Assembly: GCA_001773695.1 (NCBI GenBank)
Contig: MEXN01000005.1
Location: 139,316-203,315, forward strand
Length of the DNA stretch: 64,000 bases
Reading direction: 5' to 3'
From: Candidatus Amesbacteria bacterium RIFCSPLOWO2_01_FULL_48_25
GTDB lineage: Bacteria; Patescibacteriota; Microgenomatia; CAZETR01; Amesbacteraceae
Part shown: positions 28,004 to 50,670 of the stretch, piece by piece
Layout: each line of letters opens with the position of its first letter
How positions within the stretch are numbered: the stretch's first letter is position 1
Notes under the pieces: model-generated
Told to the model about the DNA's origin: nothing
Databases searched by the model: none
The model's input: the letters and a program-made list of their open reading frames with translations, nothing else
Program-made: the position numbers and the translations under genes

Positions 28004-28825
28004 TCATGATAGCATGGATTTCAAGGTGTCGATGTCTTGTTTTCTGGGGCCGTTTCCATCCCCGGGAACCTCAAGAATAAACGGGATAGTTTTTAGTCTT
28101 GCGTCACTCGCAAATTTTGCCAGGCTGACTTCGCCTATTTTTCCAAGACCAATGTTTTCGTGACGATCAATTTTGGATCCAAACTCGGTTTTAGAATCGT
28201 TGAGATGAATGACCGAGAGCCGTTTTAGACCTATGATTCGATCGAATTTTTCGAGAACAGTGTCGAGAGTGTAACCGGCTGCGAAACAGTGTTGGGTATC
28301 CAGGCAGACACCGATTTTGGATTTATCCCCTACTCTACTGATTATTTGAGCTAAATCCTCAAATTTTTCCCCAATAGCGCCACCTTGGCCAGCTGCGTTT
28401 TCTAAAATGAGTCTGACACCCTTGGGGCTGCTATCCAGAGTAAAGTTAATGGCGGCAACAACTTGGTCGATGGTTTTTTCCAAGCCTTCTCCCATGTGGC
28501 TGCCGATGTGGAAAATAGTTCCCACGGCATTTATTTCTCCAGCTAGTTGTTGATAGAAGATGAGAGAATTGATACTGGCTTTTAGGTACGACTTGCTTTT
28601 TGAGGCTAGATTGACCAGATAGACTCCATGGAAGAAATGAGGACCGATTCCTGATTCGTCCTTTTTATCCAGGTATTTTTGAATGAGTTTGGGATCGATG
28701 TTTTTGAATTGGAGTGAGCGGGGGGAGGAGGCGAAAGTCATAAGACAGTTGCCACCAATTTCGGCTATTCTATCTATGCACTTGTCAAAGCTACCGGCTA
28801 TAGAGACGTGACCACCTAAATGCAT
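28004..28825 (-). CDS. nfo: Endonuclease IV (AP endonuclease family 2); start reassigned to the Met whose A is shared with the CCA of the upstream tRNA-Val
   Basis: MHLGGHVSIAG... matches the Nfo start (E. coli MKYIGAHVSAAGG), plus HGVYLVNLAS, LENAAGQG, GVCLDTQHCFAAGY and HLNDSK metal-binding motifs. The ORF-track start (GTG 28834) would lie inside the tRNA. Confidence 0.85.
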   Translation of the reverse strand: MHLGGHVSIAGSFDKCIDRIAEIGGNCLMTFASSPRSLQFKNIDPKLIQKYLDKKDESGIGPHFFHGVYLVNLASKSKSYLKASINSLIFYQQLAGEINAVGTIFHIGSHMGEGLEKTIDQVVAAINFTLDSSPKGVRLILENAAGQGGAIGEKFEDLAQIISRVGDKSKIGVCLDTQHCFAAGYTLDTVLEKFDRIIGLKRLSVIHLNDSKTEFGSKIDRHENIGLGKIGEVSLAKFASDARLKTIPFILEVPGDGNGPRKQDIDTLKSMLS

Positions 28826-28899
28826 GGTGGGCACTGGAGGCTTTGCACCCCCGACCCTTGCAATGTCAATGCAATGCTCTACTCCTGAGCTAAGTGCCC
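28825..28899 (-). tRNA. tRNA-Val(GAC), CCA encoded; atypical T-loop (TGCAAAG)
   Basis: Hand-folded as GGGCACT-TA-GCTC-AGGAGTA-GAGC-A-TTGCA-TTGACAT-TGCAA-GGGTC-GGGGG-TGCAAAG-CCTCC-AGTGCCC-A-CCA. Perfect acceptor, D and anticodon stems; U33 and A37 present. Confidence 0.7.
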
Positions 28900-28923
28900 T
28901 ATATGGGCTATTTTAGCAGAAGA

Positions 28924-29127
28924 TTAGATCAGATTCCTCCCATCAGGCTTCCACTCGTCTTTCCTCACGATTCCAAATATGAAACAGATAGGATTAAGCT
29001 GGGCAAGTAGTTTTTGGAGCGGGTTGAGGGTGGGTTTTTCTAACTGTGGGGCACGCTCGGTGGGAGTTGCATCCGCGGTCATGCCCAACCTGGTCCGCTC
29101 TTCTGATGTAATTACTATTTCGCACAT
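28924..29127 (-). CDS. Small hypothetical protein (67 aa) with strong SD
   Basis: AGGAGGTGA 6 nt upstream of ATG. No recognisable family. Confidence 0.4.
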   Translation of the reverse strand: MCEIVITSEERTRLGMTADATPTERAPQLEKPTLNPLQKLLAQLNPICFIFGIVRKDEWKPDGRNLI

Positions 29128-29174
29128 TTTTATTGATCACCTCCTTTTGTCGGGTGCCAATCTGGTTCAAATAA

Positions 29175-29378
29175 TTATTGATTGGCGTGAATGGACAAAA
29201 CCTGTTCATGGTCAGTACGACCATTGTTGGCTTGTGCCTGTGCTTTGAGCTCCTCTTCCCTGGCGACTCCGACACCAAGAATGGCTTCTTTGGATAACTT
29301 TTCGGCTCCATTTGCAGGAGCTACGAGATAAGTGGATCCTTTGTAGGTAACTTTTTCTAATTTGGTCATGGTTTTCAC
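29175..29378 (-). CDS. Small hypothetical protein (67 aa) with strong SD
   Basis: GGAGGTGAAAACC-ATG. No recognisable family. Confidence 0.45.
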   Translation of the reverse strand: MKTMTKLEKVTYKGSTYLVAPANGAEKLSKEAILGVGVAREEELKAQAQANNGRTDHEQVLSIHANQ

Positions 29379-29397
29379 CTCCTTTCGGACAACTAAA

Positions 29398-29430
29398 AAA
29401 CCCCGCTGGTTGCGGGGTTTTGGGTTTAAT
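29398..29430. terminator. Bidirectional terminator-like hairpin (cccc-gc...gc-gggg flanked by A/T runs); a related imperfect hairpin lies at about 29452-29475
   Basis: aaaaccccgctggttgcggggttttgggttt; on the minus strand the stem is followed by tttttt. Confidence 0.45.
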
Positions 29431-29561
29431 AATATTTTGGTTAGTTAAAGATTACCCAAAGCTCCCCGCAATTGCGAGGTAAAAAAGAAAAAAGTAAACG
29501 CTTGGGTCGGATACATTGGGGTGATTATACTCTTATTGGGGGAGTTTGTGTCAAGACTTGC

Positions 29562-29612
29562 CCGCCACGCTTGCGCGATATGTTGCGTGATTATGGCGTG
29601 ATATACTTGAGA
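29562..29612. repeat. Left copy of a ~50-bp direct repeat flanking the fic gene
   Basis: ccacgcttgcgcgatatgttgcgtgattatggcgtgat... versus cgacgcctgcgcgatttattgcgtgattattgcgtgat... downstream of fic, about 45/54 identical. Contains internal GCGTGAT x2. Confidence 0.6.
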
Positions 29613-29617
29613 GATAA

Positions 29618-30670
29618 GTGTTTACACCCAGATACAGAATTACGGATAAGGTGGCCAAGTGGCTATCGGATATAGCAGAGATTAGGGCTATGGTGGAGTC
29701 GTCCCGGCTGCTGCCAGCCCGGGAAGCTTTTTTGCGCCGGACGGCCATAGTCAAAATGGCGCATACCTCCACTTCGATTGAGGGAAATGAACTGGATGAG
29801 TACCAGGTTGGGGAAGTGGCTCAGGGGAATAAAGTGAAGGCAGATGTAGATCAGGTGCGGGAGGTCCAGAATTATTTGGAGGCATTGGGGAAGATTGACC
29901 GGATTTCTGGAGAAAAAAGGACTTTTGGAACGGCAGAAGTATTGGAAATACATAAAACTGTGATTTCGGGACTAGTTGACTTACAGAAAACTGGAAGATT
30001 TAGATCCGGACCGGTGTATATAGTTAATACTTTGCCCAAAGGGGGAGAGGAGCTGGCCTACACCCCCCCCACTGCCTTGCATGTGGAAGTATTGGTAGAT
30101 GAACTTTTGGATTGGATCAGAAATCCGGGGGAGATTCATCCGGTAATTCGAGCGGGTTTGTTTCACTATCAATTTGAGAGTATTCACCCATTTACGGATG
30201 GTAACGGGCGAACCGGTCGGCTAATGACACTTTTGCATTTGTATCAGTCTGGTTGGGATTTCAAAAAAGTATTAGTGTTGGAGGATTTTTATAACCGGGA
30301 TAGACGTAGGTATTACCAGGCATTGCAAACGGGGGAAACTTATGTCGCTCGTCAGGGGGCGGACTTAACAGATTGGCTGGAGTATTTTGTGGGGGGGTTT
30401 TGGGACGAGGTGTTGCGGGTGAAAGAGCAAATACTAACTTTGAAAGTGGTGGGAGAGAAGGGCTTGACCCAACAGATATTAGATGAGGACGAATTGAGAA
30501 TCGTGGATTTTGTGGTGACGGTAGGGAGAGTTACCTCTTCTGATGCCGAGGATATTTTGCGGGTTCCCAAACGGACGGCGCAGTTTAAACTGAAGCGATT
30601 GGAGGATATTGGTGTACTTTCTAAGCAAGGGGCTGGTCCGGCGACGTATTATGTTATATCTAAAGTGTGA
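29618..30670 (+). CDS. Fic family protein (class II, N-terminal inhibitory SxxxEG helix) with C-terminal winged-helix-like domain
   Basis: Fic motif HPFTDGNGRTGRLMTLLHL. N-terminal TSTSIEGNELD matches the auto-inhibitory [S/T]xxxE[G/N] motif. Confidence 0.85.
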   Translation: MFTPRYRITDKVAKWLSDIAEIRAMVESSRLLPAREAFLRRTAIVKMAHTSTSIEGNELDEYQVGEVAQGNKVKADVDQVREVQNYLEALGKIDRISGEKRTFGTAEVLEIHKTVISGLVDLQKTGRFRSGPVYIVNTLPKGGEELAYTPPTALHVEVLVDELLDWIRNPGEIHPVIRAGLFHYQFESIHPFTDGNGRTGRLMTLLHLYQSGWDFKKVLVLEDFYNRDRRRYYQALQTGETYVARQGADLTDWLEYFVGGFWDEVLRVKEQILTLKVVGEKGLTQQILDEDELRIVDFVVTVGRVTSSDAEDILRVPKRTAQFKLKRLEDIGVLSKQGAGPATYYVISKV

Positions 30671-30675
30671 GGAAC

Positions 30676-30726
30676 GACGCCTGCGCGATTTATTGCGTGA
30701 TTATTGCGTGATTTTAAGAAGAGATA
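30676..30726. repeat. Right copy of the direct repeat flanking fic
   Basis: See the left copy; located immediately after the fic stop codon. Confidence 0.6.
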
Positions 30727-31350
30727 TTAACCAGTAGATGTTACCATATACCGCTCGGAGCTGAGCATGTACTTGGTGCCGGATTTGCCGACCTGACCCC
30801 AGTAGTAGGAGCGCTTTTGAGCTCTGGAATTGGTGGTGGCCAGCCAGTGGCGGGAATCCTCGACCTTGCGCCTGAGGGTGACGATTAGGGCCTTGAGCTG
30901 GTGGAAGAACGTAACGTGATAGACGCCGGGATTGGCCGGAGCCTGGGAGGCAGCAATTTCGACTTCATGAGCTAGACCGCCTGCGGATTTGACCAGGGAC
31001 TTGATTTCGGACTGGATAGCCTGGATGGTCTGGCGGATTTGAGTTTCTTGCCTCTGGCGGTAGGATTGTTCCTCTGCCTTGATTTGCTGGAGTCGCATCT
31101 GGAAGCGGGCTTCGGCTTTCTTTTCGCCTTGGTTTTCTGCTTGCTGAAGTTGGGCCACTGAGATTTGTTCGTTAGGCTGGAGCGTGCCTGAGGCGGGAGT
31201 AAGACCAATGGCCTCGGGAAGGTCGCTGATGACGATCTTTTTGACCTGGATTTTGGCCTCGGATTTGAGATCTGAGCCTAAATCGCGTAGAGCTTCCAGG
31301 AAGTTGACCGGAGCTGGTCTCTTGGACTTTACACTATGGGATACTTGCAT
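30727..31350 (-). CDS. Hypothetical coiled-coil protein
   Basis: 207-aa ORF, Gln/Glu-rich central coiled coil, no motif. Confidence 0.35.
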   Translation of the reverse strand: MQVSHSVKSKRPAPVNFLEALRDLGSDLKSEAKIQVKKIVISDLPEAIGLTPASGTLQPNEQISVAQLQQAENQGEKKAEARFQMRLQQIKAEEQSYRQRQETQIRQTIQAIQSEIKSLVKSAGGLAHEVEIAASQAPANPGVYHVTFFHQLKALIVTLRRKVEDSRHWLATTNSRAQKRSYYWGQVGKSGTKYMLSSERYMVTSTG

Positions 31351-31359
31351 AAACTGATG

Positions 31360-32064: not shown

Positions 32065-32066
32065 TG

Positions 32067-32651: not shown

Positions 32652-32675
32652 CTGGCGCCGATGTTACTACGGGTC

Positions 32676-33137: not shown

Positions 33138-33157
33138 GTAATTATTAGACGGGGGGT

Positions 33158-33469: not shown

Positions 33470-33481
33470 TCTAAGAGGGGG
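33459..33481. repeat. 23-bp perfect palindrome ccccctcttaatctaagaggggg, 7 nt upstream of the dinB ATG; second copy at 700-722 inside holB
   Basis: 10-11-bp arms with a 1-2-nt centre; seen in the sequence at both loci. Confidence 0.6.
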
Positions 33482-33488: not shown

Positions 33489-34658
33489 ATGAAAACGATA
33501 TTACATTTGGATATGAATAGCTACTTCGCGACGGCGGAGCAGCAGGCGAATCCTATTTACCGGGGTAGGCCGGTGGGAATAATTAAGGCTGAAGGCCGCG
33601 GGTGTGTGATTGCCGCTTCTGTCGAGGCCAAAAAGTTTGGAGTGAGAACAGGGTGTACGACCTGGGAAGCGAAGAAAATGTGCCCTTGGATTATTTTTGT
33701 GCCGTCGGATATGGATAAATATTTTGCATTGACGAACCGGATGATAAAAATTTTGGCTGATTACTCCCCCACTTTGGAAGCGTTCTCGATAGATGAATGT
33801 TTTATAGATGTGACGGAGACGCAAAAATTTTTTGGCGGCGGGATGTATCAAATGGCACTGGAGATAAAATCCCGGGTGAGAGAGGAGTTGGGAGAATGGA
33901 TGAAGTGTTCGATCGGGGTCTCATTTACCAAATTATTGGCCAAACTGGCCTCCGAAATGAACAAGCCGGATGGATTGACCTTTTTGACACCGGATAACTA
34001 TTTGGATGAGACGAAATGTGTAGCGGTATCGGAGGTGTGCGGAATAGGATATTCAAGAACAAAATACCTAAACTCTCGAGGGGCTTATACACTTGGGCAG
34101 GCCCGGAAATTGGACTTGCCCCGAGAGATTTGGGAGTTGGTTTGGCTGCGAAGTAATGATGAACTGACGACGATTGATGATTTGGAGCCGGCGAAGTCGG
34201 TGTCCCGAACATACACTACGTTTCAAGCCACAAGCCACAAATCCCAAGTCACAAAGTTAATTAGAAATTTGGTAGAGGAGGCGGCAGCGAAGCTCCGAGA
34301 GATGGGGATGGCGGGGAGGACGTTTTGCCTATCGCTGGATTCTTTCTGGGCCAGGAAGACCGTCGAAGCTCCGACAAGCGATCCGCTAGTTATTTTTGAT
34401 TTGTTAAATAGGGAGTATGAGAAAAATCCGATAGTGAATATAAGGCAAGCGGGAGTGTGGATTAGTAACTTAATGTTTAATACTCAATGTTTAATGTTTA
34501 ATAACAGGCGGCAACTACTTGATGCGACAGATAAGGTTAATCAAAAATTTGGCTTGTTTACGCTGTATCCGGCGACACTACTGGGTACCGAATTAGTTCG
34601 GCCCGAGGTGACGGGGTATTTAGGGGATAAATACTATCGGTTTGCAGGTGATCGATGA
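33489..34658 (+). CDS. dinB: DNA polymerase IV (Y-family translesion polymerase)
   Basis: MKTILHLDMNSYFATAEQ..., SIDECFIDVT catalytic region, little-finger domain. Confidence 0.85.
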   Translation: MKTILHLDMNSYFATAEQQANPIYRGRPVGIIKAEGRGCVIAASVEAKKFGVRTGCTTWEAKKMCPWIIFVPSDMDKYFALTNRMIKILADYSPTLEAFSIDECFIDVTETQKFFGGGMYQMALEIKSRVREELGEWMKCSIGVSFTKLLAKLASEMNKPDGLTFLTPDNYLDETKCVAVSEVCGIGYSRTKYLNSRGAYTLGQARKLDLPREIWELVWLRSNDELTTIDDLEPAKSVSRTYTTFQATSHKSQVTKLIRNLVEEAAAKLREMGMAGRTFCLSLDSFWARKTVEAPTSDPLVIFDLLNREYEKNPIVNIRQAGVWISNLMFNTQCLMFNNRRQLLDATDKVNQKFGLFTLYPATLLGTELVRPEVTGYLGDKYYRFAGDR

Positions 34659-34717
34659 ATATGGTATAATATGTATGCTATCGCAAGATAGTGGGAACCT
34701 CAGCAATGGTGTTCCCG

Positions 34718-34749
34718 AAAAACCCGTTGTCGCAAGATGACGGGTTTTT
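34718..34749. terminator. Bidirectional rho-independent terminator between convergent dinB and the 34749..35093 gene
   Basis: aaaaacccgttgtcgcaagatgacgggttttt. Two additional small hairpins immediately upstream (ctatcGCAAgatag, gggaacc...ggtgttccc). Confidence 0.6.
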
Positions 34750-35093
34750 CATTTGGGTTGGGATTTATTGGCCTCGGTTTGCCTTTCGAGAATTTCGAGG
34801 GGAAATTGATAGTCCCTGTACCTGATTTCGGTAATTTTGTCGCCGATAACTTTGTTGACTTTAAGAGATGCAGCCCAATACATCGGAAGAATGAGAATAT
34901 TTGGGCAGAGCCATAAATAGCTTTCTTCCATGCGAGTGACAGAATAGGCGAAGGTGGCGAGGCTCAAAGTGATGGCAGATGCCCAGAGGAATGTACGGAG
35001 AGCTTCGTATGGCCTTTTGTTGGCCAGATATCTTTCCCACGACCTTTTTTTGTTCGGGTCGATGATCAAGTAGTCAGGCATCTCAGGATACAC
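34749..35093 (-). CDS. Hypothetical membrane protein
   Basis: 114-aa ORF with two hydrophobic segments. Confidence 0.35.
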   Translation of the reverse strand: MYPEMPDYLIIDPNKKRSWERYLANKRPYEALRTFLWASAITLSLATFAYSVTRMEESYLWLCPNILILPMYWAASLKVNKVIGDKITEIRYRDYQFPLEILERQTEANKSQPK

Positions 35094-35128: not shown

Positions 35129-35728
35129 TTAAAGTGGGGCTGTTGCGAAGAGGATGTTGGTGGAGATACCTGCTACACCTGCGCAGCCGTGATCCCAGGC
35201 GGGGTCCAATTGGTTGGCGTTGTGTTCGGGCGAGCTCATATATACCCACTCTACCAAGTGGACACCGGTGAGAATAAAGCCATAAGAAGAGTTTTCCCCC
35301 AGCCTACCGTAACCCAGTTTGATAAACCCATCTTCGTTTTCTAGAAAGTCCTGGAATCCAGCGTGGGCATCGGTGCCTTCAATTTTTTCGAAATGTTGGG
35401 CCCGGCTTTGGGTATAGTCGCAAAGGCGGGGATCGGTTTTTAGGGGCTGGGAGCCGACACTCTGGCGCAGGTTGTTTATGGCAGATAATAATTCATCGGC
35501 AGTTGTCATTTGGGCATCATTTTCAACACGGATGGTGTAGGTGTGGTCGCTGACTTTTTTAATCTGACCCCAGGGATCGGTGTTTGGGTAAACATAGGAG
35601 AATTCTCGGGGGGTGGGTTGAGGAATTGATGCCGGTTTGGTCAGAGAGTATGCGGGCGAGAGAAGAGGGATGCGGTAAGTGAACTGGAGGGAAAGAAGAG
35701 TGAGGATGATGGCAAAAAGAAAGGGCAT
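35129..35728 (-). CDS. Hypothetical secreted/membrane-anchored protein; start reassigned to the Met 5 nt downstream of tRNA-Leu(TAG)
   Basis: MPFLFAIILTLLSLQF signal-like N-terminus. The ORF-track start (35809) would run through the tRNA. Confidence 0.4.
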   Translation of the reverse strand: MPFLFAIILTLLSLQFTYRIPLLSPAYSLTKPASIPQPTPREFSYVYPNTDPWGQIKKVSDHTYTIRVENDAQMTTADELLSAINNLRQSVGSQPLKTDPRLCDYTQSRAQHFEKIEGTDAHAGFQDFLENEDGFIKLGYGRLGENSSYGFILTGVHLVEWVYMSSPEHNANQLDPAWDHGCAGVAGISTNILFATAPL

Positions 35729-35733
35729 AGATG

Positions 35734-35815
35734 TGCCTCCGAGAGGACTCGAACCTCTAAGGGTTACCCCACAGGTTCCTAAAACCTGCGCGTATACCAA
35801 TTCCGCCACGGAGGC
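35734..35815 (-). tRNA. tRNA-Leu(TAG), class II with long variable arm
   Basis: GCCTCCG...CAGGT-TTTAGGA-ACCTG...GGTTCGAGTCC...CGGAGGC-A. Confidence 0.85.
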
Positions 35816-35942
35816 GTGAGGTTATTTTAGCATTGCCTTTGGTGCAACCAAAAAACCCCGGCTCCTGCCCGATGCCGAGGCTTTTTGATAAAATTCTGCC
35901 GCCAGGCCTTTCGACTCAGCCGCAGAATGTGGATGAATTGTA

Positions 35943-36702: not shown

Positions 36703-37284
36703 TTACTGGAGGTCGGAGAGGAATTGGGAAATGGCCTTGGCCCATGGACCACCTTTCTCCACCGACGGCGGGGTATATTTGGCCATTATTTCTTCGGGTG
36801 TATTTAAGCCATGGTCGATGTAATTTTTTTTGAGAGTGCTGGCTACGGTTTCGATGGCTTGGGGATAGTTATCGAAGCGGGTAACTTTGTCGCCGTATAT
36901 GCCAAAACCCCAGCAATTATGGGAGTCGGCGGGAATTTTTTTACACAGATTGGATTCTTGTTGGGCAATAGCTACCAGTAGTCTGTAATCAAGAAGATAT
37001 TTGTCCGAGATTTCTACCAGGTATTCGGAGTGAGGTTCTAGTGGGGAGTCGTACTCGTGTAAATACCGTCTGATAATTACTGGACGGGCATCACGGACGG
37101 AGAAACTGGCGAAGGTGGACGGAGCAGGGTCGGTAGAGGTAGCAATAACGGCGGGATTTTGGGTTGACAGGGAGAGAACTTGGGGAGGGGTGGAGAAGGG
37201 CTGGGTGTAGAGAATGTAGGCGCTGGTTATAAGGACCACTGGAGTGAGTGTAAAAAAAGAAATCAGGAGAAATGGTTTTGACAT
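36703..37284 (-). CDS. Secreted lysozyme-like / lytic transglycosylase-like protein (putative)
   Basis: N-terminal signal/TM. Segment LLVAIAQQESNLCKK...NCWGFGIYG resembles the SLT catalytic region (E-S motif). Confidence 0.4.
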   Translation of the reverse strand: MSKPFLLISFFTLTPVVLITSAYILYTQPFSTPPQVLSLSTQNPAVIATSTDPAPSTFASFSVRDARPVIIRRYLHEYDSPLEPHSEYLVEISDKYLLDYRLLVAIAQQESNLCKKIPADSHNCWGFGIYGDKVTRFDNYPQAIETVASTLKKNYIDHGLNTPEEIMAKYTPPSVEKGGPWAKAISQFLSDLQ

Positions 37285-37292
37285 ATTATTTG

Positions 37293-37363
37293 AGCGGCTA
37301 ACGGGAATCGAACCCGTGTCATCTCCTTGGCAAGGAGAAGTTCTACCATTGAACCATAGCCGC
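37293..37363 (-). tRNA. tRNA-Gly(GCC)
   Basis: GCGGCTA-TG-GTTC-AATGGTA-GAAC-T-TCTCC-TTGCCAA-GGAGA-TGAC-ACGGG-TTCGATT-CCCGT-TAGCCGC-T. Confidence 0.85.
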
Positions 37364-37416
37364 GAATTTTCTTCCTTTTTGATTTTACCAAATATGTGTG
37401 TCTTGGTGGTTTTTGT

Positions 37417-38070
37417 TCATATATAGAGCACGTATTTAAACATGAGCCAGAAATGGGAAAAACTGGCGGCGATGACAAAAAGATGAAACAGTTCGTGCAT
37501 TCCAAACCAGCTCTTCTGGGGTAAAACCCGACCTAGAATGAAAGGTATGACCCCCAGGGTGTATAGGGTGCCTCCCCACATGAGCCACCAGAGGCCGCCC
37601 AGTGGCAACGATTTGATAAGGACCGGTAAGGCAATGATCCCGAGCCACCCTAGAGCCACATAGGGGAGAGGGATGAGCCAGGCTTTCTCGTTCTTGACGG
37701 CGATCTTGAGCGCGATTCCGATAATCGCCAAGCCCCAGACAACGCTAAAGAGGCTCCATCCCCATCCTCTTTGTGGCAGGACCAACAGGATTGGCGTGTA
37801 TGTACTGGCGATGAAAATATAAATCATTGAGTGGTCGATGATTCGAAAAATTTCTTTGGCCCAATGCGTTTTCGGAATGAGATGATAAATGGTGCTGATG
37901 AGATAAAGGAGGATAAGCCCTGAACCAAAAATAGAGAATCCAACAACGTGACGAGTCTGACCGTAGTGGGCAGCAAAGACGACCAGGAGCACGAGTCCAG
38001 CAATCGAAAGAAGAAATCCGATAAAAGCCGTGAGGCTACTAACCGGTTCACTGTTGCGCAGGAGATTCAT
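37417..38070 (-). CDS. Hemolysin III / PAQR family membrane protein
   Basis: 7-TM protein with STIYHLIP...DHSMIY...HELFHLFV motifs. ATG is 3 nt after the tRNA-Leu(TAA) 3' end. Confidence 0.8.
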   Translation of the reverse strand: MNLLRNSEPVSSLTAFIGFLLSIAGLVLLVVFAAHYGQTRHVVGFSIFGSGLILLYLISTIYHLIPKTHWAKEIFRIIDHSMIYIFIASTYTPILLVLPQRGWGWSLFSVVWGLAIIGIALKIAVKNEKAWLIPLPYVALGWLGIIALPVLIKSLPLGGLWWLMWGGTLYTLGVIPFILGRVLPQKSWFGMHELFHLFVIAASFSHFWLMFKYVLYI

Positions 38071-38073
38071 TTG

Positions 38074-38158
<85 letters not shown>

Positions 38159-38166
38159 TTTTTTAG

Positions 38167-38240
38167 GTGGAGCCAACAGGACTCGAACCTGTGACCTTCT
38201 CTGTGTAAAAGAGACGCTCTACCAACTGAGCCATGGCTCC
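38167..38240 (-). tRNA. tRNA-Val(TAC)
   Basis: GGAGCCA-TG-GCTC-AGTTGGTA-GAGC-G-TCTCT-TTTACAC-AGAGA-AGGTC-ACAGG-TTCGAGT-CCTGT-TGGCTCC-A. Confidence 0.85.
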
Positions 38241-38250
38241 AGATTTTTTG

Positions 38251-38333
38251 TGCGGCGAGAGGGAGTTGAACCCACACGTCCTTGCGGACACTGGCTCCTG
38301 AAGCCAGCGCGTCTGCCATTTCGCCATCGCCGC
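38251..38333 (-). tRNA. tRNA-Leu(CAG)
   Basis: GCGGCGA...CTGGC-TTCAGGA-GCCAG...long variable arm...GGGTTCAACTCCC...TCGCCGC-A. Confidence 0.85.
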
Positions 38334-38400
38334 TCTGGTTGTATTTTATCATTTGTATTAGGGATGATTTGATTTGTCTTGGGGTATAATTGACAGGTAA

Positions 38401-38484
38401 GCCGGGATGCTGAAACTGGTAGACAGGCATGCTTGAGGGGCATGTGTCAGCAATGGCGTGGAGGTTCGAGTCCTCTTCCCGGCA
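38401..38484 (+). tRNA. tRNA-Leu(GAG), preceded by a ggTATAAT -10 element
   Basis: GCCGGGA...CATGC-TTGAGGG-GCATG...long variable arm...GGTTCGAGTCC...TCCCGGC-A. Confidence 0.85.
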
Positions 38485-38510
38485 CATTAATTAGTATAAT
38501 TTTGTTTCCC

Positions 38511-38583
38511 GCAGCGGTAGCCAAGGTGGTCAAGGCACCTGTCTGAAGAACAGGCCATGCAGGTTCGACTCCTGCCTGCTGCA
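38511..38583 (+). tRNA. tRNA-Phe(GAA), preceded by a tagTATAAT -10 element
   Basis: GCAGCGG...CCTGT-CTGAAGA-ACAGG-CCAT-GCAGG-TTCGACT-CCTGC-CTGCTGC-A; 3-bp D-stem with a long D-loop. Confidence 0.75.
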
Positions 38584-38603
38584 CAAGTGAAACGGTTGCT
38601 TGC

Positions 38604-39137
38604 GTGCTGTGGAGTGTGTATTATGAAAAGTGGAGTATGAGGCCGACGGATGAGATTGTTAAAGCAAGTTTGGGTTGGGTAAATGTGGGGTTGGGGTTAT
38701 TTATTGGGGTGATTGTGGCGGGGGTGGGAGCGTTTTTGTGGGTATTTAGGGATAAATTGCGAGATGCGAGAGCATTACTGACAATTGCAGCATTGTTGAT
38801 CTCTCTGCCCCTGGGGGTAAGGTTGATTTTGGAAAGAACCAGTTTCAGAAACATTGCGGCGGAGGAGCTGAGTATCGTGGCGGTGGAGATAAACCAAACT
38901 ACGGCCGGTGAGCTGGTAATTTATCTGACGTTGTCGCGGCCGGCGGTGGCTTATATGGAGTATAAGCCGTCTGGTTTGAATAAGAGCACTTTGGTCTTTG
39001 CCTTGGGCAAGGTGGAACCAAGAATCGGGCATACATTTGTGCTGAGCGACGTGGGGCAGGGTGGGGAGGCGGTTTTTGTGCTGAATGGGCAGAAAGTACT
39101 GTGGCAAGGGGTGCCGCTGGTGATTCCGGGGAGGTGA
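38604..39137 (+). CDS. Hypothetical membrane protein (start uncertain: GTG 38604 or ATG about 38637)
   Basis: N-terminal TM (WVNVGLGLFIGVIVAGVGAFLWVF) and a second TM. 20 nt after tRNA-Phe, no SD. Confidence 0.4.
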   Translation: MLWSVYYEKWSMRPTDEIVKASLGWVNVGLGLFIGVIVAGVGAFLWVFRDKLRDARALLTIAALLISLPLGVRLILERTSFRNIAAEELSIVAVEINQTTAGELVIYLTLSRPAVAYMEYKPSGLNKSTLVFALGKVEPRIGHTFVLSDVGQGGEAVFVLNGQKVLWQGVPLVIPGR

Positions 39138-39158
39138 AGGAGTAAAATATGGGAGTGG

Positions 39159-39233
39159 CGGAGACTAGTTCATCGGTAGAACGCTCGGTTTGGGACCGAG
39201 AGGTGCAGGGTTCAATTCCCTGGTCTCCGACCA
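39159..39233 (+). tRNA. tRNA-Pro(TGG), CCA encoded
   Basis: CGGAGAC-TA-GTTC-ATCGGTA-GAAC-G-CTCGG-TTTGGGA-CCGAG-AGGTG-CAGGG-TTCAATT-CCCTG-GTCTCCG-A-CCA. The ORF-track ATG at 39149 lies inside or upstream of this tRNA. Confidence 0.85.
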
Positions 39234-39235: not shown

Positions 39236-40243
39236 TTGGTGATAGGTGCGGTGGCCATTTTTTGCTCGCTAGTTTTTGGATTAGTCGGCTATTATTTGGG
39301 TATAAGACAAAACCGACCTGGTTCTGTATCAACTGTTTCTGAATCGAACCCCACTACTATTTGGAAAACTTACAAGAACGGAGGTATCGCTTTTGAGTAT
39401 CCGCCGAATTGGATAGAAAAGCCTGTTCTTGTCCAAGGAAGCGGTTTTACTCAGGAATTTGATGATCCGGAAGATAAATACATTTTTTCATTTTCGAGCA
39501 TTGGGAATTATAACCAGGTGACAGGCAAACCTTATGCGACCATAGATGAATTTGTGGGCATGCCTTACAAAGTTGGTGCGGTAACGGCAGATGGTCAGGA
39601 AGGTAGGCAACCGCTTCCTCGGGCTGGGAGTGAGGACGTAAACTCAGCCGTTTTTTTCTCGGTTGACGCAAAGGCTATATATACTCTGGAGCTAAAAGCT
39701 GTCGATATTGGGGGAGGTCGAAAGTTGTTTGAGCAAATTCTTTCAACTTTGAAGTTTTCGAGGTTACAGGCGGAGCCGACTCTAGCTCCGGCGAAAAATG
39801 TCAAGAGACTTACTTATTACTTGCCCAGTGGTTGGCTGACTATGACTGATGCTGCCGGAACACTTGAGGTGGGGTATAACCCGAAAGTTTCATCGGCGAG
39901 CACCGTTCGGGGAGTGGATATTGAGTTGACCCCCAATGACCCGAACGTAATCTTGCGGTCGCATATTGTAGTCCGGTTGCTGCCGTATGATGGTGGGTCA
40001 CGCCATAGGTTTATATACGAGTCAATGGGGGGAGTTCCTATAGCAGAGGAGCGAATGGCGGGTTATACCGAGAAAGAATACTTGTATGGCGGCCGGTCTT
40101 GCTTGTTTTTAGTTGGGATCAGTTATTCTCAGTTTCCGACAACGTGGGGAATGTGCGATGCGGGGAGCGGCCGGGCGTTTTTGATTACTGCTAATGGCGA
40201 GGCCTACGAGGATACAGTGCGGACTATCAGGTTGGTTAAGTAG
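39236..40243 (+). CDS. Hypothetical membrane-anchored extracytoplasmic protein; start reassigned to TTG/GTG 2-5 nt after the tRNA-Pro CCA
   Basis: The first plausible start is immediately followed by the TM (L)VIGAVAIFCSLVFGLVGYYLGI. No in-frame ATG for about 110 codons. Confidence 0.45.
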   Translation: MVIGAVAIFCSLVFGLVGYYLGIRQNRPGSVSTVSESNPTTIWKTYKNGGIAFEYPPNWIEKPVLVQGSGFTQEFDDPEDKYIFSFSSIGNYNQVTGKPYATIDEFVGMPYKVGAVTADGQEGRQPLPRAGSEDVNSAVFFSVDAKAIYTLELKAVDIGGGRKLFEQILSTLKFSRLQAEPTLAPAKNVKRLTYYLPSGWLTMTDAAGTLEVGYNPKVSSASTVRGVDIELTPNDPNVILRSHIVVRLLPYDGGSRHRFIYESMGGVPIAEERMAGYTEKEYLYGGRSCLFLVGISYSQFPTTWGMCDAGSGRAFLITANGEAYEDTVRTIRLVK

Positions 40244-45383: not shown

Positions 45384-45480
45384 ACAATGCGCTCGATACT
45401 CGCAAAAATCCGTCCTCGACTGCCTGGCGTTTGCCGGCGTCCGGCTGCGGGCGGTTTTTGCTGGAGTATCTGCGCGCCCT

Positions 45481-46014
45481 TTGTTTATGACTGAAGCAAT
45501 TGTTCTGGGGGGTGGGTGTTTTTGGTGCACGGAGACCGTTATGAAGCGGCTGCGAGGGGTAATATCGGTAATGTCGGGATATGCGGGGGGAAATATCCAA
45601 AACCCTGATTATGAGCAGGTGAGTACAGGCCAAACGGGACACGCGGAAGTGATAAGAGTCGTCTTTGACCCTGATCAGATCGGGTTGGAGACGATACTGG
45701 AAGTGTTTTTTGCCACGCATGATCCGACTACTATGAATAGGCAGGGGGCGGACGTGGGCAGCCAATACCGATCGATAATTTTATTTGCAGATGATAAACA
45801 AAGAGAAAAGATATCTGAAGTGATTAAGAGATTAAGGTCTAGTTTTGACTCCCCTATCGTGACAGAAGTTAAGAGATTGGAAAAGTTTTATGAGGCTGAA
45901 GAATATCACCGAAATTTTTACGAGAGAAATGAAGGTAAACCCTATTGCCAGGTAGTGATTAACCCCAAACTGGCCAAGCTGAGAGCTAAATTCGCGGATC
46001 TTTTGATAAAATAG
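45481..46014 (+). CDS. msrA: Peptide methionine sulfoxide reductase MsrA
   Basis: AIVLGGGCFWCTE active-site motif. Confidence 0.85.
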   Translation: MFMTEAIVLGGGCFWCTETVMKRLRGVISVMSGYAGGNIQNPDYEQVSTGQTGHAEVIRVVFDPDQIGLETILEVFFATHDPTTMNRQGADVGSQYRSIILFADDKQREKISEVIKRLRSSFDSPIVTEVKRLEKFYEAEEYHRNFYERNEGKPYCQVVINPKLAKLRAKFADLLIK

Positions 46015-46021
46015 ATACAGT

Positions 46022-46092
46022 GCGGGTGTAGCTCAATGGTAGAGCGCCAGTTTTCCAAACTGGTGACGAGGGTCCGATTCCCTTCACCCGCT
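46022..46092 (+). tRNA. tRNA-Gly(TCC); T-loop TCCGATT (C55)
   Basis: GCGGGTG-TA-GCTC-AATGGTA-GAGC-G-CCAGT-TTTCCAA-ACTGG-TGAC-GAGGG-TCCGATT-CCCTT-CACCCGC-T. Confidence 0.85.
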
Positions 46093-46104
46093 CAGGGCTT
46101 GGTC

Positions 46105-46113
46105 TGATATAAT
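46105..46113 (+). promoter_or_regulatory. Extended -10 promoter element TGATATAAT upstream of the first RRM gene
   Basis: Perfect TGnTATAAT. A similar TGATATAAA lies at about 58664-58672 upstream of the paralog. Confidence 0.45.
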
Positions 46114-46146
46114 GATGGGAGTATGGAACTGGGGGTGAAGATATAG

Positions 46147-46503
46147 GTGGCAGCTAAACTTTTTGTAGGAGGGCTTTCTTGGGATACGACAGATGATTCC
46201 TTGCGCAATTTTTTTGCCCAAGCAGGAACGGTGGTATCGGCGACAGTTATCTCTGATAAATTTTCCGGTAGATCCAAGGGATTTGGATTTGTGGAGATGA
46301 GTTCGGACGAGGAGGCTCAGGCGGCAATCGCCAAACTAAATGGTCAAAATCTGGATGGACGGACAATCGCGATTAATGAAGCCAGGCCCCAGGCCCCGCG
46401 GGACAATAACTTTTCCCGTAGGCCAAGTGGCGGCGGTGGCGGAAGAGGCGATTATCGCCGAGACAACAGAAGTCCCCGAGGTGGGGGTAGATCTTTTAGA
46501 TGA
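46147..46503 (+). CDS. RRM-type RNA-binding protein with Gly/Arg-rich tail
   Basis: RNP-2 LFVGGL and RNP-1 KGFGFVEM. C-terminal RRPSGGGGGRGDYRRDNRSPRGGGRS. Confidence 0.8.
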   Translation: MAAKLFVGGLSWDTTDDSLRNFFAQAGTVVSATVISDKFSGRSKGFGFVEMSSDEEAQAAIAKLNGQNLDGRTIAINEARPQAPRDNNFSRRPSGGGGGRGDYRRDNRSPRGGGRSFR

Positions 46504-47135: not shown

Positions 47136-47775
47136 TTTGGACGGAAGTGATGGAGACGGGAGAGACTGGTTGGGAATTTTCTCCGAAGCGGTTGGCTGAA
47201 ACCTCGGCGGTGGCGATTTTGTCGACGACTTCGAGGCCTGCAGTTACTTTCCCGAAAATGACATAGTTTTTGGGCAGAGGATAGTCGGCGTGCATGATGA
47301 AAAACTGGGAGCCATTGGTGTTGGGACCGGAGTTGGCCATGGCGACGGTGCCGCGGGAATATTCGCCCGTTATGGGCTCGTCGGCAAATTTGTAGCCCGG
47401 TCCCCCACTCCCATCACCGTTGGGATCGCCGCCCTGGATCATAAAGCCCTTGATCACTCGGTGAAAGATGGTTTTGTCGTAGAAGTTTTTGCGGGCGAGG
47501 GAAATAAAATTATTGACAGTGATGGGTGTATCTTTGGCATTTAAGGAGATGATAATTGGGCCGGTGGAAGTTTGGAGAACGGCTGTGTAGGACTTTTGGG
47601 CGTCGATTTGCATGGCGGGTGGGCCGGATGTGGGTTGAGGAGTGGGGTCAAGCATGGGTGTGGGGTTGGGAAGTGATTGTATAGTATCGGGGGCGGGTTT
47701 GGAAAGCCAGAAATAAGACCCGGTGAGGACGGCTACTAAAATTAGAGAAGTTATGATCCAAGCAGTTTTAGTCAT
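47116..47775 (-). CDS. Cyclophilin-type PPIase, membrane-anchored (second copy)
   Basis: HRVIKGFMIQGGDPNGDGSGGPGYKF. N-terminal TM plus Pro-rich linker. Confidence 0.8.
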   Translation of the reverse strand: MTKTAWIITSLILVAVLTGSYFWLSKPAPDTIQSLPNPTPMLDPTPQPTSGPPAMQIDAQKSYTAVLQTSTGPIIISLNAKDTPITVNNFISLARKNFYDKTIFHRVIKGFMIQGGDPNGDGSGGPGYKFADEPITGEYSRGTVAMANSGPNTNGSQFFIMHADYPLPKNYVIFGKVTAGLEVVDKIATAEVSANRFGENSQPVSPVSITSVQINEEKI

Positions 47776-48447
47776 TTAGAGAGTGGTGCGGGCGTTGTGG
47801 ATTGAGCCGGCGCCCAGGATGCGCCAGGATTTTTTTATTTTAACATAAGCGGTATTTTCGTCGATGCCGATAATTTTTCCAATTTTGGGTAGGTTTTTTT
47901 TGACAAGCTCGATTTGTTCCGGGTTGAAATAATGGGGGATTTCGTTGAAATGGGGAATTAGACCGAAGTTGACTAGATTTAGACCCGGTTCCCAGGGTAG
48001 GACTTCCCCTTTTTTGTCAAAGGCGTAAACCCGAGCCCAAACTGAATTACCTATGACCATGGCACCGGCTGAAGCTGCTGCCAGAGTGGCCCCGGATTTG
48101 AACTTATTTAATATTACTTTCCAGGCGGGAGAACCTTTGAGGGTGTCTAACAGATGGCCGGGATCGCCGCCTGAGAAATAGAAAAAATTAAAATTGGTTA
48201 GATGGTTACTTAGTTCATTGTTCATAGCATCCTTGCGATTGAGTAGGTGGATGCCGGTGGCGGTGGCCCCGAGTTTTTTGAAATGAGCTATGCCGTCGTT
48301 TATCCATTTTTGGAAGTCGGGCTCGAGGCCGGCGGCGGTGGGAAGAATGGCGATTTTGGGATTTTTGGTCTGAGAAATCAGGAATTTATCAACCTCGTTG
48401 CCGGCAGGGGTAAATTCTCCCGATCCAATTAAAGCTAAAATTCCCAT
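47776..48447 (-). CDS. Peptidase S51 (dipeptidase E / cyanophycinase-like) family protein
   Basis: Type-1 glutamine-amidotransferase-like fold cues: IAILPTAAG, FYFSGGDPGHL, AASAGAMV (nucleophile Ser). Confidence 0.5.
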   Translation of the reverse strand: MGILALIGSGEFTPAGNEVDKFLISQTKNPKIAILPTAAGLEPDFQKWINDGIAHFKKLGATATGIHLLNRKDAMNNELSNHLTNFNFFYFSGGDPGHLLDTLKGSPAWKVILNKFKSGATLAAASAGAMVIGNSVWARVYAFDKKGEVLPWEPGLNLVNFGLIPHFNEIPHYFNPEQIELVKKNLPKIGKIIGIDENTAYVKIKKSWRILGAGSIHNARTTL

Positions 48448-48464
48448 GTTACAATTCTAACATC

Positions 48465-49490
48465 ATGATTGATACGGTGGTGTGCCCGAATTGCGGAAAG
48501 GAAGTGGAGATTTCGGAAGCCTTGTCGCACGAGATGATGGAGAAAATTAAGCAGACGGAGAGGATGAAATATGAAGCAGAAATGAGAATAAGAAGCAAGA
48601 AATATATTGATGAGTTGGCGCAAAAAGAAAAAGATTTGAGGGAGTTGAAGCGAAAGGACGAAGAGCGGAGTTTGGAAATGGAGAAAAAACTATCGCAAGT
48701 CGAGGATAAAATGAGATTGGAAGCGAAAAAGAAAGCAGAAGAAGAGCAGAATCTTAAAGTTTTGGAGTTGCAAAAACAGCTGACGGACGCGCTTAAAGTC
48801 AATGACGAATTGAAGCATAAGCTGCAACAAGGATCACAGCAAACACAGGGAGAGGTGTTGGAGTTGGAGTTGGAGCAAATGCTGAAACGGGAGTTTCCCA
48901 ATGACAAGATTTCCGAAGTGGCTAAAGGGATGCGGGGGGCGGACGTAGTACAGGAAGTGTTTGAAAAGACTGGCAAAAGGACGGGGGTAGTTTTGTGGGA
49001 AAGTAAAAACGCCAAGTGGAGTGAGGGATGGATTGACAAACTGCGTGAGGACATGCGGCGGCTGAATGCCAACGAGGCAGTTCTGGTGTCGGTGGAATTA
49101 CCACGGGAGATTGGCACTTTTGGATTTTATAAGGGAGTGTGGGTGACTGGTCGGGTGAGTATGGTGGGGTTGGCTTGGGCGTTGCGGAAGAATTTTTGGG
49201 AGGTATTTAAACAAAACCGGCAAAATGAGGGTAAGAAGGAAAAGGCTGAGGAAGTTTATGAATATGTAAATAGTTTGGAATTTGGACACAGAGTGGAAAG
49301 CATTGTGGAAGCGTTTAATAACTTAAATGAAGATTTGGAAAAGGAAAAGAGGTGGTTTGGCTTGAAGTGGGCTAGACAGGAAAAAGAAATCCGAAAGATA
49401 ATGGATAGTACGGCCGGGATGTATGGGGAATTGCAGGGGGTAACTGGACGGGCTTTGCCGGAAATTAAGGCTCTGGAGTCGGGGGAATGA
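48465..49490 (+). CDS. DUF2130-like protein (N-terminal zinc ribbon, coiled coil, C-terminal nuclease-like domain)
   Basis: VCPNCGKEVEI ribbon, long Lys/Glu coiled coil, C-terminal FPNDKISEVAKGMRGADVVQEV...GVVLWESKNAKWSEGWIDKLRED pattern recalled for DUF2130. Confidence 0.5.
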   Translation: MIDTVVCPNCGKEVEISEALSHEMMEKIKQTERMKYEAEMRIRSKKYIDELAQKEKDLRELKRKDEERSLEMEKKLSQVEDKMRLEAKKKAEEEQNLKVLELQKQLTDALKVNDELKHKLQQGSQQTQGEVLELELEQMLKREFPNDKISEVAKGMRGADVVQEVFEKTGKRTGVVLWESKNAKWSEGWIDKLREDMRRLNANEAVLVSVELPREIGTFGFYKGVWVTGRVSMVGLAWALRKNFWEVFKQNRQNEGKKEKAEEVYEYVNSLEFGHRVESIVEAFNNLNEDLEKEKRWFGLKWARQEKEIRKIMDSTAGMYGELQGVTGRALPEIKALESGE

Positions 49491-50594
49491 CTTGGTAGAC
49501 GACCCCCTTCTTGTCGTCGGAGACATATAAATTCCCAGAAGAGTCGAAGATGAGATCAACTGGACGGCCTAAAGCCCCAGCCAGAGGCTGGTCGGCCTTT
49601 GGCTCGAAGCCGGTGATAAAGTCTGTAATTTGTTTAGTTTTCGGATCGATGATGACTATTTTGTAGCCGGTGGGCGGGTTTCTGTTCCAGGAACCGTGGT
49701 ACGCGACTAAAAGTTTGCCTCGATAATTTTGAGGCCAGCTGTCGGGGATAAAAGCTAGTCCCAAGGGAGCGGAGTGGGCGGGGAGGTCGATAAAGCTGGG
49801 TTTCTCGAGCGGCTCTTGGCAAGGATTTCTGATGTAGGTGTTTTTGTCGAAGTTGGTGTCGTGAATGTTTTGGCCGTAGCAGATGGGCCAGCCATAATTC
49901 CCCTCCCCAATAATATTGATTTCGTCGGGGGGGGTGTCGTTGCCGATTAGATCGCGACCCATGTCCGTGGCCCAGATATTTTTTTGAGAATCAAGAGTCA
50001 TGAAGACTGAATTTCGTAATCCAGTAGCGAAGGAGCGAAAACTTGAACCGTCTAAGTTTGAGACGTAGATGGCGGCACGGTGAGGATCTGGTTCATGACA
50101 AACATTGCAACTTGACCCAATTGAGATGTATAGCTGATTGTCTTTGACCAAGAGTGAGCGGGTGACATGGTTTCCCCCTTCCGGTAAATCCAAGATTTTT
50201 TTGCCGTCGATTGTCACCTTGTCTTCTTCGGCGATGTAGAGATGTCCATTTGTATAAGCTAGTCCGTGGGGCCGGTTGAGGCCAGAGACAATAATTTTTT
50301 TGTCGGGTAGAAGTACCACTTGTCCCCTACTGGGAATGCTAACTAGTAAGTTTCCTGTTGGATCAAATTCAAGGTCGCGAGGGTTGCCTAAATCGGAGGC
50401 AAAAATAGAAATCGAGAAACCTTTTGGCAGGCTCAGAGGCAGGCCGGTGGAATTTATACCCGGAGATTGTGTTGAGGTAGGAATAGCTGGTGCCGGTAAA
50501 ATTGCAGGCTTGAGACCGCGGAGATTTTGCCAGTAGAAGTTGACTAGCCAAACTAGAGGGATAATTATAGCGGCGGACAGGATAATTTTTTTCA
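49465..50594 (-). CDS. PQQ-dependent sugar dehydrogenase (GSDH / sorbosone dehydrogenase family beta-propeller); start reassigned to GTG 3 nt after tRNA-Arg
   Basis: LNRPHGLAYTNGHLYIAE, GGNHVTRSL, PDEINIIGEGNYGWP, HGSWNR. The ORF-track TTG start (50628) lies inside the tRNA-Arg. (V)KKIILSAAIIIPLVWL signal follows the GTG. Confidence 0.7.
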
Positions 50595-50597
50595 CTT

Positions 50598-50670
50598 GTG
50601 CCCCCGAGAGGAATCGAACCTCTATCAACTGTTCCGAAGACAGTTACTCTATCCGTTGAGCTACGAGGGC
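50598..50670 (-). tRNA. tRNA-Arg(TCG)
   Basis: GCCCTCG-TA-GCTC-AACGGATA-GAGT-A-ACTGT-CTTCGGA-ACAGT-TGATA-GAGGT-TCGATTC-CTCTC-GGGGGC-A. Confidence 0.85.

Follow-up and report, generated by a model that had tools for sequence, protein, structure and literature searches.

The DNA analysed here is a 64-kb window, by which we mean the whole stretch under study, from Candidatus Amesbacteria, a lineage of the Microgenomates within the Candidate Phyla Radiation (CPR), from groundwater of the Rifle aquifer. Six protein-coding genes in this window begin immediately behind a transfer RNA (tRNA) gene on the same strand, with spacers of only 0-8 nucleotides (nt), and we propose that excision of the tRNA probably supplies the 5' end of their messenger RNA (mRNA). 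All coordinates given below are window positions. The Nfo and HlyIII proteins of the window are 100% identical to proteins of Amesbacteria RIFCSPHIGHO2_01_FULL_48_32, and identical contigs are present in Rifle metagenomes. ARAGORN identified 11 tRNA genes in the window and Rfam a 12th, a tRNA-His gene; extension of the contig by 10 kb beyond each window end yielded no further tRNAs. The tRNAs are bona fide genes with Rfam scores of 46-75 bits.

Five of the junctions lie on the minus strand. tRNA-Val(GAC) (28825..28899; Rfam 58 bits) encodes its CCA, and the final A of this CCA, at 28825, is at the same time the A of the ATG of nfo (28004..28825, minus strand), the gene for an endonuclease IV of 273 amino acids (aa) that begins with MHLGGHVS. 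tRNA-Leu(TAG) (35733..35815) has no encoded CCA and carries a GGAGG in the 3' strand of its acceptor stem; its discriminator at 35734 is followed by CATCT and by the ATG at 35728 of a gene for a CAP-domain secreted or membrane protein of 199 aa (35129..35728, minus strand). tRNA-Gly(GCC) (37292..37363), likewise without encoded CCA, has its discriminator at 37293, from which CAAATAAT leads to the ATG at 37284 of a gene for a membrane-anchored protein of 193 aa (36703..37284, minus strand). A cluster of three tRNAs (38073..38333) consists of Leu(CAG) (38250-38333), Val(TAC) (38166-38240) and Leu(TAA) (38073-38157), separated by spacers of 8-10 nt, and the discriminator of the last of them, at 38074, is followed by CAA and the ATG at 38070 of hlyIII (37417..38070, minus strand), which encodes an HlyIII-family membrane protein of 217 aa. 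tRNA-Arg(TCG) (50598..50670) has no encoded CCA, and its discriminator at 50599 is followed by CAA and the GTG at 50595 of a gene for a PQQ/GSDH-type sugar dehydrogenase of 376 aa (49465..50595, minus strand). On the plus strand, the encoded CCA of tRNA-Pro(TGG) (39159..39233) ends at 39233 and is followed by AA and by either the TTG at 39236 or the GTG at 39239, 2 and 5 nt past the CCA, of a gene for a membrane-anchored protein of 335 aa (39236..40243). Measured from discriminator to start codon, the six distances are 2 (Val), 5 (Leu TAG), 8 (Gly GCC), 3 (Leu TAA), 5 (Pro) and 3 (Arg) nt, and the starts are ATG in four genes, GTG in one and TTG or GTG in one. All six junctions had been proposed in an earlier examination of the letters alone (hereafter the sequence-only reading); all are real and lie within 1 nt of where they had been placed, the Arg(TCG) junction having been off by 1.

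The products of these six genes are real. Four match Pfam families (AP_endonuc_2 with E = 6e-40 for Nfo, HlyIII with E = 8e-41, CAP and GSDH), and the other two have orthologues in related loci, the 193-aa protein in L025 and L030 and the 335-aa protein in L025. The JGI gene calls begin exactly at the proposed starts, with products of 199 aa for the CAP-domain protein, 335 aa for the protein behind tRNA-Pro(TGG) and an identical 376-aa product for the dehydrogenase; for nfo, JGI and ENA call the same 273-aa product, and some ENA calls at the six loci extend into the tRNA. The N-terminus of Nfo is kept in 40+ homologues, those of 60-80% identity sharing M-x-[LI]-G-[AG]-H-V-S. Several Nfo entries in the databases have 22-45 additional aa, which in four cases are translated tRNA-Val ('ALSSGVEHCIDIA..VPT'); other entries are truncated to Met29, as expected from gene callers that avoid the tRNA. 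The N-termini of GSDH homologues and of HlyIII homologues (214-217 aa) also align to the proposed starts. The sequence-only reading had taken the starts to be those of signal peptides, membrane segments or canonical family N-termini and had rejected several open reading frame (ORF) starts that run into the tRNAs; the homologue N-termini are conserved, and the longer calls translate tRNA sequence.

It could be argued that the starts are mis-assigned, the real ones lying downstream and being led by a Shine-Dalgarno (SD) sequence, or that promoters are hidden within the tRNA genes. Gene callers do disagree at four of the loci (226 versus 199, 364 versus 335, 387 versus 376 and 276 versus 273 aa). 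However, the homologue N-termini match the proposed starts, the longer gene calls are translated tRNA, and a search for SD-led in-frame downstream starts, a check suggested with the first reading, found none up to codon 50 in the six coding sequences (CDSs). Promoters inside the tRNA genes were rejected because no TAnAAT box stands at a usable distance within the tRNA 3' halves. We consider this explanation as a whole to be extremely improbable.

The putative promoters lie upstream of the tRNAs. On the minus strand, the extended -10 element TGCTAAAAT is found 10 nt upstream of tRNA-Val(GAC) (28910..28918) and again 8 nt upstream of tRNA-Leu(TAG) (35824..35832), where a stem and T-run before the promoter resemble, by eye, the terminator of the upstream gene. 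Further extended -10 elements on this strand are TGGTAAAAT (37382..37390) upstream of tRNA-Gly(GCC), TGATAAAAT (38343..38351) at the head of the Leu(CAG)-Val(TAC)-Leu(TAA)-hlyIII unit, and TGTTAAAAT (50742..50750), which is followed by the 5' half of a pseudo-tRNA-Arg and then by the intact tRNA-Arg(TCG). tRNA-Pro(TGG) is preceded on the plus strand by the -10 box TAAAAT (39143-39148). The pattern TGNTAWAAT occurs 18 times in the window versus 4.9 ± 2.1 expected, a number reached in 0 of 100 shuffles, and six of the 18 occurrences are just upstream of tRNAs or tRNA clusters, namely Val(GAC), Leu(TAG), Gly(GCC), Leu(CAG)-Val(TAC)-Leu(TAA), Gly(TCC) and the Arg region. Directly upstream of the six CDSs no -10 box was found, nor is there room for one between tRNA and CDS. 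Because these CDSs have no promoter of their own, co-transcription with the tRNA would be the only evident route to their expression, and the tRNA(s) and the downstream CDS are very likely co-transcribed.

A generic sigma-70 -35/-10 scan was dropped as a promoter detector because its sites were no more numerous than in shuffles and extended -10 promoters were missed; the TGNTAWAAT pattern and the spacing statistics of TAnAAT took its place. As to the tRNA promoters in general, we compiled 54 unique Amesbacteria tRNA genes from the window and the related loci L024-L033 and L104-L108. For 26 of them, the distance from the end of a -10 box to the mature 5' end is 8-10 nt, a spacing that would leave 5' leaders of only about 1-3 nt and make the tRNAs nearly 'leaderless' too.

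The protein genes of the window point to a particular mode of initiation. We worked with a set of 68 genes composed of JGI and ENA calls plus manual calls; a codon-usage gene caller was dropped, as it was biased by the strong GC skew and missed genes. A TAnAAT box ends 6-10 nt before the start in 13 of the 68 genes, and all other offsets between 0 and 54 nt together account for 6 genes. In an ORF-based histogram, 15 of the 35 motif-to-start pairs in the window fall at 6-10 nt, as do 32 of 70 in 135 kb of Amesbacteria relatives; the control loci (0.8 Mb) have 53 of 215 pairs at this distance, a much weaker peak. The promoter-adjacent starts have no SD, and 12 of the 13 are ATG. A Pribnow box about 6-10 nt upstream of starts defines the leaderless-rich 'group C' bacteria of GeneMarkS-2 (PMC6028130). 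From the peak at this spacing we conclude that the organism very probably translates leaderless mRNAs routinely.

The junctions were followed into relatives. For nfo, a metagenome scan gave 12 loci with 61-80% Nfo identity, and tRNA-Val(GAC) is located directly upstream of nfo in all 12; a -10 box equivalent to that of the window is also present upstream of tRNA-Val in relatives. The discriminator-to-ATG distances in relatives are 2, 3, 3, 8, 3, 3, 1 and 10 nt, the tRNA-Val genes being of two different sequence types. The exception in spacing is L032, where the spacer is 32 nt long and contains a TATAAT at a distance of 7 nt from the ATG. In other phyla, distant nfo genes (L040, L041) are preceded by an AAGGAGG SD and by no tRNA. 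Regarding the tRNA itself, the T-loop of the window's tRNA-Val(GAC) is non-canonical, of the TGCAAAG/TGCGAAG type and not TTCGAAT, a feature shared by L024, L027, L029, L030 and L033; in L025, L026, L028 and L032 the tRNA-Val(GAC) before nfo is canonical.

Other junctions behave similarly. In L025, which represents a syntenic second species, an ATG lies 2 nt past tRNA-Pro(TGG), 1 nt past tRNA-Gly(GCC) and 1 nt past tRNA-Leu(TAG), and at the Gly(GCC) junction of L030 the CCA and the ATG have their A in common. In L027, the orthologue of the gene downstream of tRNA-Leu(TAG) lies 22 nt from the tRNA and is preceded by TGCTACAAT plus 6 nt before its ATG. The dehydrogenase gene of L108 (64% identity) follows Arg(TCG) with CC and then GTG; in L106 and L107 (79%) it is not adjacent to a tRNA, and TGCTACAAT stands 6 nt before its GTG. 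For three independent genes, nfo, the gene behind tRNA-Leu(TAG) and GSDH, a relative without the tRNA at the start has a -10 box 6-7 nt before that same start. As the tRNA 3' end and the -10 box take the same position, tRNA 3' end and transcription start look interchangeable over evolution. Where junctions are conserved, the spacers stay at 10 nt or less and the start codons are the same, which agrees with the check on aligned orthologues that the sequence-only reading had put forward. Among the control loci, 0 of 15 tRNAs have a CDS start within 15 nt. The Leu(TAA)-hlyIII junction is lineage-specific, since it is not conserved in relatives with 68-81% HlyIII identity (L015, L016, L019, L109-L111), where hlyIII is found elsewhere, once 45 nt (9 nt by an alternative start) past a tRNA-Arg(GCG); a GTDB genome scan with HlyIII returned only distant matches (<=56% identity) without tRNA linkage and is uninformative.

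The surroundings of tRNA-Arg(TCG) contain tRNA fragments in two of the loci. In the window, the 5' half of a pseudo-tRNA-Arg (50714-50732, minus strand), with a CTTCGG remnant of the anticodon loop, is placed between the promoter and the intact tRNA. L104 has the reciprocal layout (around 1150-1179), an intact tRNA being followed by about 120 nt and then by a duplicated tRNA 3' fragment that abuts the GTG of GSDH. An Rfam search for a second tRNA at these places in the window and L104 found none, only the fragments, and the arrangement points to a tandem duplication in an ancestor, with the copies decaying reciprocally, or to an integration scar.

Based on the promoters, the leaderless signature and the relatives, we propose the following mechanism. 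A promoter upstream of the tRNA or tRNAs would give a single RNA that runs from a short 5' leader through the tRNA(s) into the CDS. An endonuclease, the candidate being an RNase Z-type enzyme, would cut the tRNA 3' end at or just past the discriminator, followed by CCA addition or repair, and this cut would free an mRNA with a leader of 0-8 nt before the start codon. The freed mRNA would be initiated independently of an SD in the leaderless manner, as the organism seemingly does for many promoter-proximal genes, and the processed 5'-monophosphate RNA would be the translated species. At the Val(GAC)-nfo junction, a cut past the discriminator or past CC would leave a tRNA in need of CCA completion and an mRNA starting with CCAUG or AUG. 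We hold it rather probable that excision of a tRNA from a tRNA-CDS co-transcript yields an effectively leaderless mRNA in this way. A wider claim would be that tRNA 3' maturation is a general 'post-transcriptional transcription start' that makes leaderless mRNAs in Amesbacteria and possibly other CPR bacteria, that evolution can exchange it freely for a -10 promoter placed 6-7 nt ahead of the start codon, that it includes CCA/AUG junctions with a shared A at which both products depend on CCA repair, and that it is thus a bacterial counterpart of mitochondrial punctuation; on this claim our judgement is evenly poised.

Several observations weigh against the proposed excision. The pattern is not universal: it is present in 6 of the 8 tRNA-to-CDS cases of the window and not in every case, as had first been claimed, the gap being 54 nt between tRNA-Gly(TCC) and an RRM gene and 20 or 53 nt behind tRNA-Phe(GAA). 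L027 and L028 keep the nfo junction only, with 0 of 4 non-nfo tRNAs adjoining a CDS in each. The GSDH gene of L104 (78% identity) has about 120 nt between the intact tRNA-Arg and its GTG without a suitably spaced -10 box, and in L015 the tRNA-CDS gaps measure 18, 35 and 45 nt, with neither an SD nor a clear -10 box. Tight packing is normal in the window, same-strand CDS-to-CDS gaps being <=8 nt in 20 of 47 pairs. The leaders of 5-10 nt at the Leu(TAG), Gly(GCC) and Pro(TGG) junctions and in L027 and L033 are longer than classical leaderless ones, and in E. coli and mycobacteria leaderless mRNAs are translated best when the start codon forms the extreme 5' end. Two junctions have SD-like runs in base-paired acceptor stems, GGAGG 7 nt before the ATG at 35728 in Leu(TAG) and GGGGG 5 nt before the GTG at 50595 in Arg(TCG). 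Finally, a C stands right after the discriminator in all 54 of the unique Amesbacteria tRNA genes (26 CA, 17 CC, 11 CT), and a C at this place is not known as the preferred context of the RNase Z of B. subtilis. Among the loci compared, tRNA-CDS adjacency is a tendency of the lineage and not a rule.

The tight packing bears on how much can be read from geometry. When positions are drawn at random, 7.1% have an ORF of >=100 aa starting within the next 0-8 nt, which gives P(>=6/8) = 3e-6 for the tRNAs. Geometry alone is nevertheless no proof of selection because CDS-to-CDS gaps are equally tight, and the case therefore rests on the promoters and the relatives. A neutral explanation would be that deletion bias in a small CPR genome trims all spacers that need no SD or leader, so that adjacency has no mechanistic role and expression occurs by read-through. 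It would fit not only the CDS-to-CDS gaps but also the 8-10 nt between tRNAs, the -10 boxes 8-10 nt from tRNA 5' ends and the drift of spacer length (1-10 nt) and sequence among relatives. However, the genes belong to conserved, full-length, functional families and must therefore be translated by some mechanism, the tRNA-Val-nfo linkage is kept in 12 of 12 loci despite about 40% protein divergence, and where the spacer is longer, a new -10 box stands at leaderless distance. Compaction accounts for the geometry and not for initiation, and is compatible with tRNA excision rather than a true alternative to it; as the explanation of the junctions we judge it very unlikely.

The SD-like runs need to be seen against the general use of such sequences in the window, where only about 12 of the 68 genes have an SD-like motif and most operon-internal genes have none. 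The sequence-only reading had stated that none of the six genes has an SD and that other genes here have strong AGGAGG sites. The first statement fails at two of the six junctions, where SD-like runs lie within the acceptor stems, and the second is true for about 12 of 68 genes only; the contrast with SD-led genes is weak because few window genes carry any SD. In the tRNA-to-start spacers of the six junctions, of 0-8 nt, there is no G and no SD-led 5' untranslated region. In 18 unique junctions of the window and relatives, which are not independent of each other, there are 0 G among about 47 spacer nt past the obligatory C. An SD inside the tRNA was rejected as a general explanation, as only two of the six junctions have one and the run at Leu(TAG) is not conserved, the orthologous L025 junction reading TTCCGCCCAC and lacking the GGAGG.

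The acceptor-stem runs also belong to a different view, according to which the co-transcript is translated unprocessed, by SD-independent internal initiation at an AUG or GUG that abuts the folded tRNA, sometimes with the help of SD-like G-runs in the acceptor stem. The tRNA would then be a cap-like stable 5' structure, and tRNA release and translation would be independent or mutually exclusive fates of the transcript. Besides the runs at ATG 35728 and GTG 50595, it can be argued that L108 has the G-run of the Arg acceptor as well and that a GAGGG is kept beside the GTG in the unpaired tRNA 3' remnant of L104. Since operon-internal genes mostly have no SD, SD-independent internal initiation must exist in this organism, and the leaders of 5-10 nt fit such initiation equally well. 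However, positions -20 to -1 are the acceptor and T-arm of a stable tRNA, which would hinder loading of the 30S subunit, and only two of the six junctions have an SD-like run, of which the one at Leu(TAG) is not conserved. Translation of the unprocessed RNA also leaves the -10 boxes 6-7 nt upstream of the start in tRNA-less orthologues unexplained. We therefore consider it unlikely and continue to favour tRNA excision.

For tRNA excision, the sequence behind the discriminator deserves attention. The full CCA is encoded in only 10 of the 54 Amesbacteria tRNA genes. Due to the rarity of an encoded CCA and the universal C past the discriminator, the cut site may be unusual, and this C may reflect the mechanism of 3' processing or of CCA addition. 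CPR genomes are reported to keep RNase J, RNase III and PNPase (PMC12641178).

Two cases fall outside the pattern. Around tRNA-Gly(TCC) (46004..46503, plus strand), a promoter is followed by the tRNA (46022-46093), a separate promoter TGATATAAT (46105-46113), an SD-like GGGGGTGA and the RRM gene (46147-46503), which starts with the GTG at 46147. tRNA-Leu(GAG) and tRNA-Phe(GAA) (38401..38584, plus strand) have a TATAAT at 38385-38390. Behind them, the sequence can be read as a small ORF of 17 codons (VKRLLACCGVCIMKSGV; 38587..38640, plus strand) whose GTG is located 3 nt (CAA) past the tRNA-Phe discriminator; its TGA overlaps the ATG at 38637, in the form ATGA, of a CDS at 38637-39137 with a 166-aa product in both JGI and ENA. 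The gap behind tRNA-Phe, first given as 20 nt, is 20 or 53 nt for the CDS and 3 nt for the small ORF. The start context of the small ORF, CAAGTGAAA, is identical to that of the Arg(TCG) junction. This small ORF may represent a further, seventh start next to a tRNA, translationally coupled to the gene behind it. The tRNA-His(GTG) gene (51613-51684, plus strand), which was missed by ARAGORN, has an encoded G-1, an odd T-arm and an Rfam score of 52 bits; a TAAAAT box of its own lies 10 nt upstream of G-1, and a convergent gene follows downstream.

At their 3' ends, the six CDSs adjoin other CDSs, convergent genes, or a promoter and the next tRNA, and no tRNA punctuation was found on this side. 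The genome is compact, as shown by convergent genes that share 26 nt (49465-49490) and 8 nt (40236-40243) at their 3' ends. Further extended -10 motifs are present without an obvious gene start at leaderless distance, at 35886-35894, 59971-59979 and 22246-22254 on the plus strand and at 60530-60538 and 47837-47845 on the minus strand; one of these five is antisense to a methyltransferase gene, and they may drive antisense or non-coding transcripts. At 34641-34755 (plus strand) there is a good promoter (TTTGCA-18-TATAAT, with TG), and the next 75 nt or so contain three hairpins with GCAA loops, the last being a strong bidirectional terminator; this region is a candidate small RNA or mini-ORF. 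The GC skew is strongly positive (0.12-0.41) throughout the window whatever the gene strand, with one 2-kb bin (52001-54000) at -0.11, which may be a recently inverted or acquired segment.

The arrangement can be compared with several known systems. In the tRNA punctuation model of Ojala, Montoya and Attardi, excision of mitochondrial tRNAs by RNase P and ELAC2 gives leaderless mitochondrial mRNAs. As in mitochondria, tRNAs in the window abut protein genes at zero to a few nt without an SD, the 5' end of the mRNA would be made by excision of the tRNA at its 3' end, and at one junction a nucleotide belongs to both the tRNA 3' end and the start codon, so that both products would require CCA addition or repair. 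Unlike in mitochondria, the units lie on a bacterial chromosome and have a separate promoter per tRNA or cluster instead of one or two genome-length transcripts, the mRNA is punctuated on its 5' side alone, and SD-led and promoter-driven leaderless genes coexist with the tRNA-adjacent ones. With a promoter for every tRNA unit and punctuation of mRNA 5' ends alone, the feature is not a full member of the mitochondrial scheme. The original idea of mitochondrial-style punctuation is partly supported: it agrees with the sequence-level checks suggested for it, on orthologous spacers and start codons, on N-termini and on SD-led downstream starts, and the only recognisable promoters are those upstream of the tRNAs; as a universal arrangement it does not hold, and the SD contrast brought forward for it was largely wrong.

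Within bacteria, the thrU-tyrU-glyT-thrT-tufB operon of E. coli has tRNAs and a protein gene on one promoter that are separated by RNA processing. In contrast to such operons, in which a long spacer provides an SD-led leader, the spacers here are 0-8 nt and not SD-led. Plant mitochondrial t-elements and archaeal tRNA-like elements are further examples in which recognition of a tRNA or tRNA-like fold by RNase P or RNase Z sets an mRNA end; such elements are often non-functional tRNA mimics, whereas the tRNAs described here are bona fide genes. Leaderless-rich bacterial genomes are known from the Actinobacteria and Deinococcus-Thermus (PMC6028130, PMC4633059). Like group C genomes, the window has a Pribnow box about 6-10 nt before many starts, ATG or GTG starts without an SD, and other genes that are SD-led. 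The difference would be that in group C genomes the primary triphosphate 5' end is at the start codon, whereas we propose a processed monophosphate end 0-8 nt upstream of it. In the literature searched, neither CPR nor Amesbacteria are listed among leaderless-rich genomes, and no description of tRNA-punctuated leaderless mRNAs from bacteria, or of CPR organisms using leaderless mRNAs, came up there, the coverage of this search being incomplete. By analogy, the feature would work like mitochondrial tRNA punctuation combined with bacterial leaderless translation.

If this interpretation is true, tRNA punctuation with leaderless translation would not be a mitochondrial oddity but would also have been reached by a free-standing bacterial lineage with small genomes, and Amesbacteria, as members of the CPR, would join the leaderless-rich bacteria. 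The synteny of tRNA-Val and nfo would be locked because nfo has no promoter of its own. Systematic start errors in the annotation of CPR genomes would be exposed, both ORFs that enter tRNAs and starts that are truncated to avoid them. The proposed mechanism predicts 5'-monophosphate mRNA ends at discriminator +1 or +2 in groundwater metatranscriptomes, and it would raise the question of how initiation proceeds on 5'-processed mRNAs with leaders of 1-10 nt.

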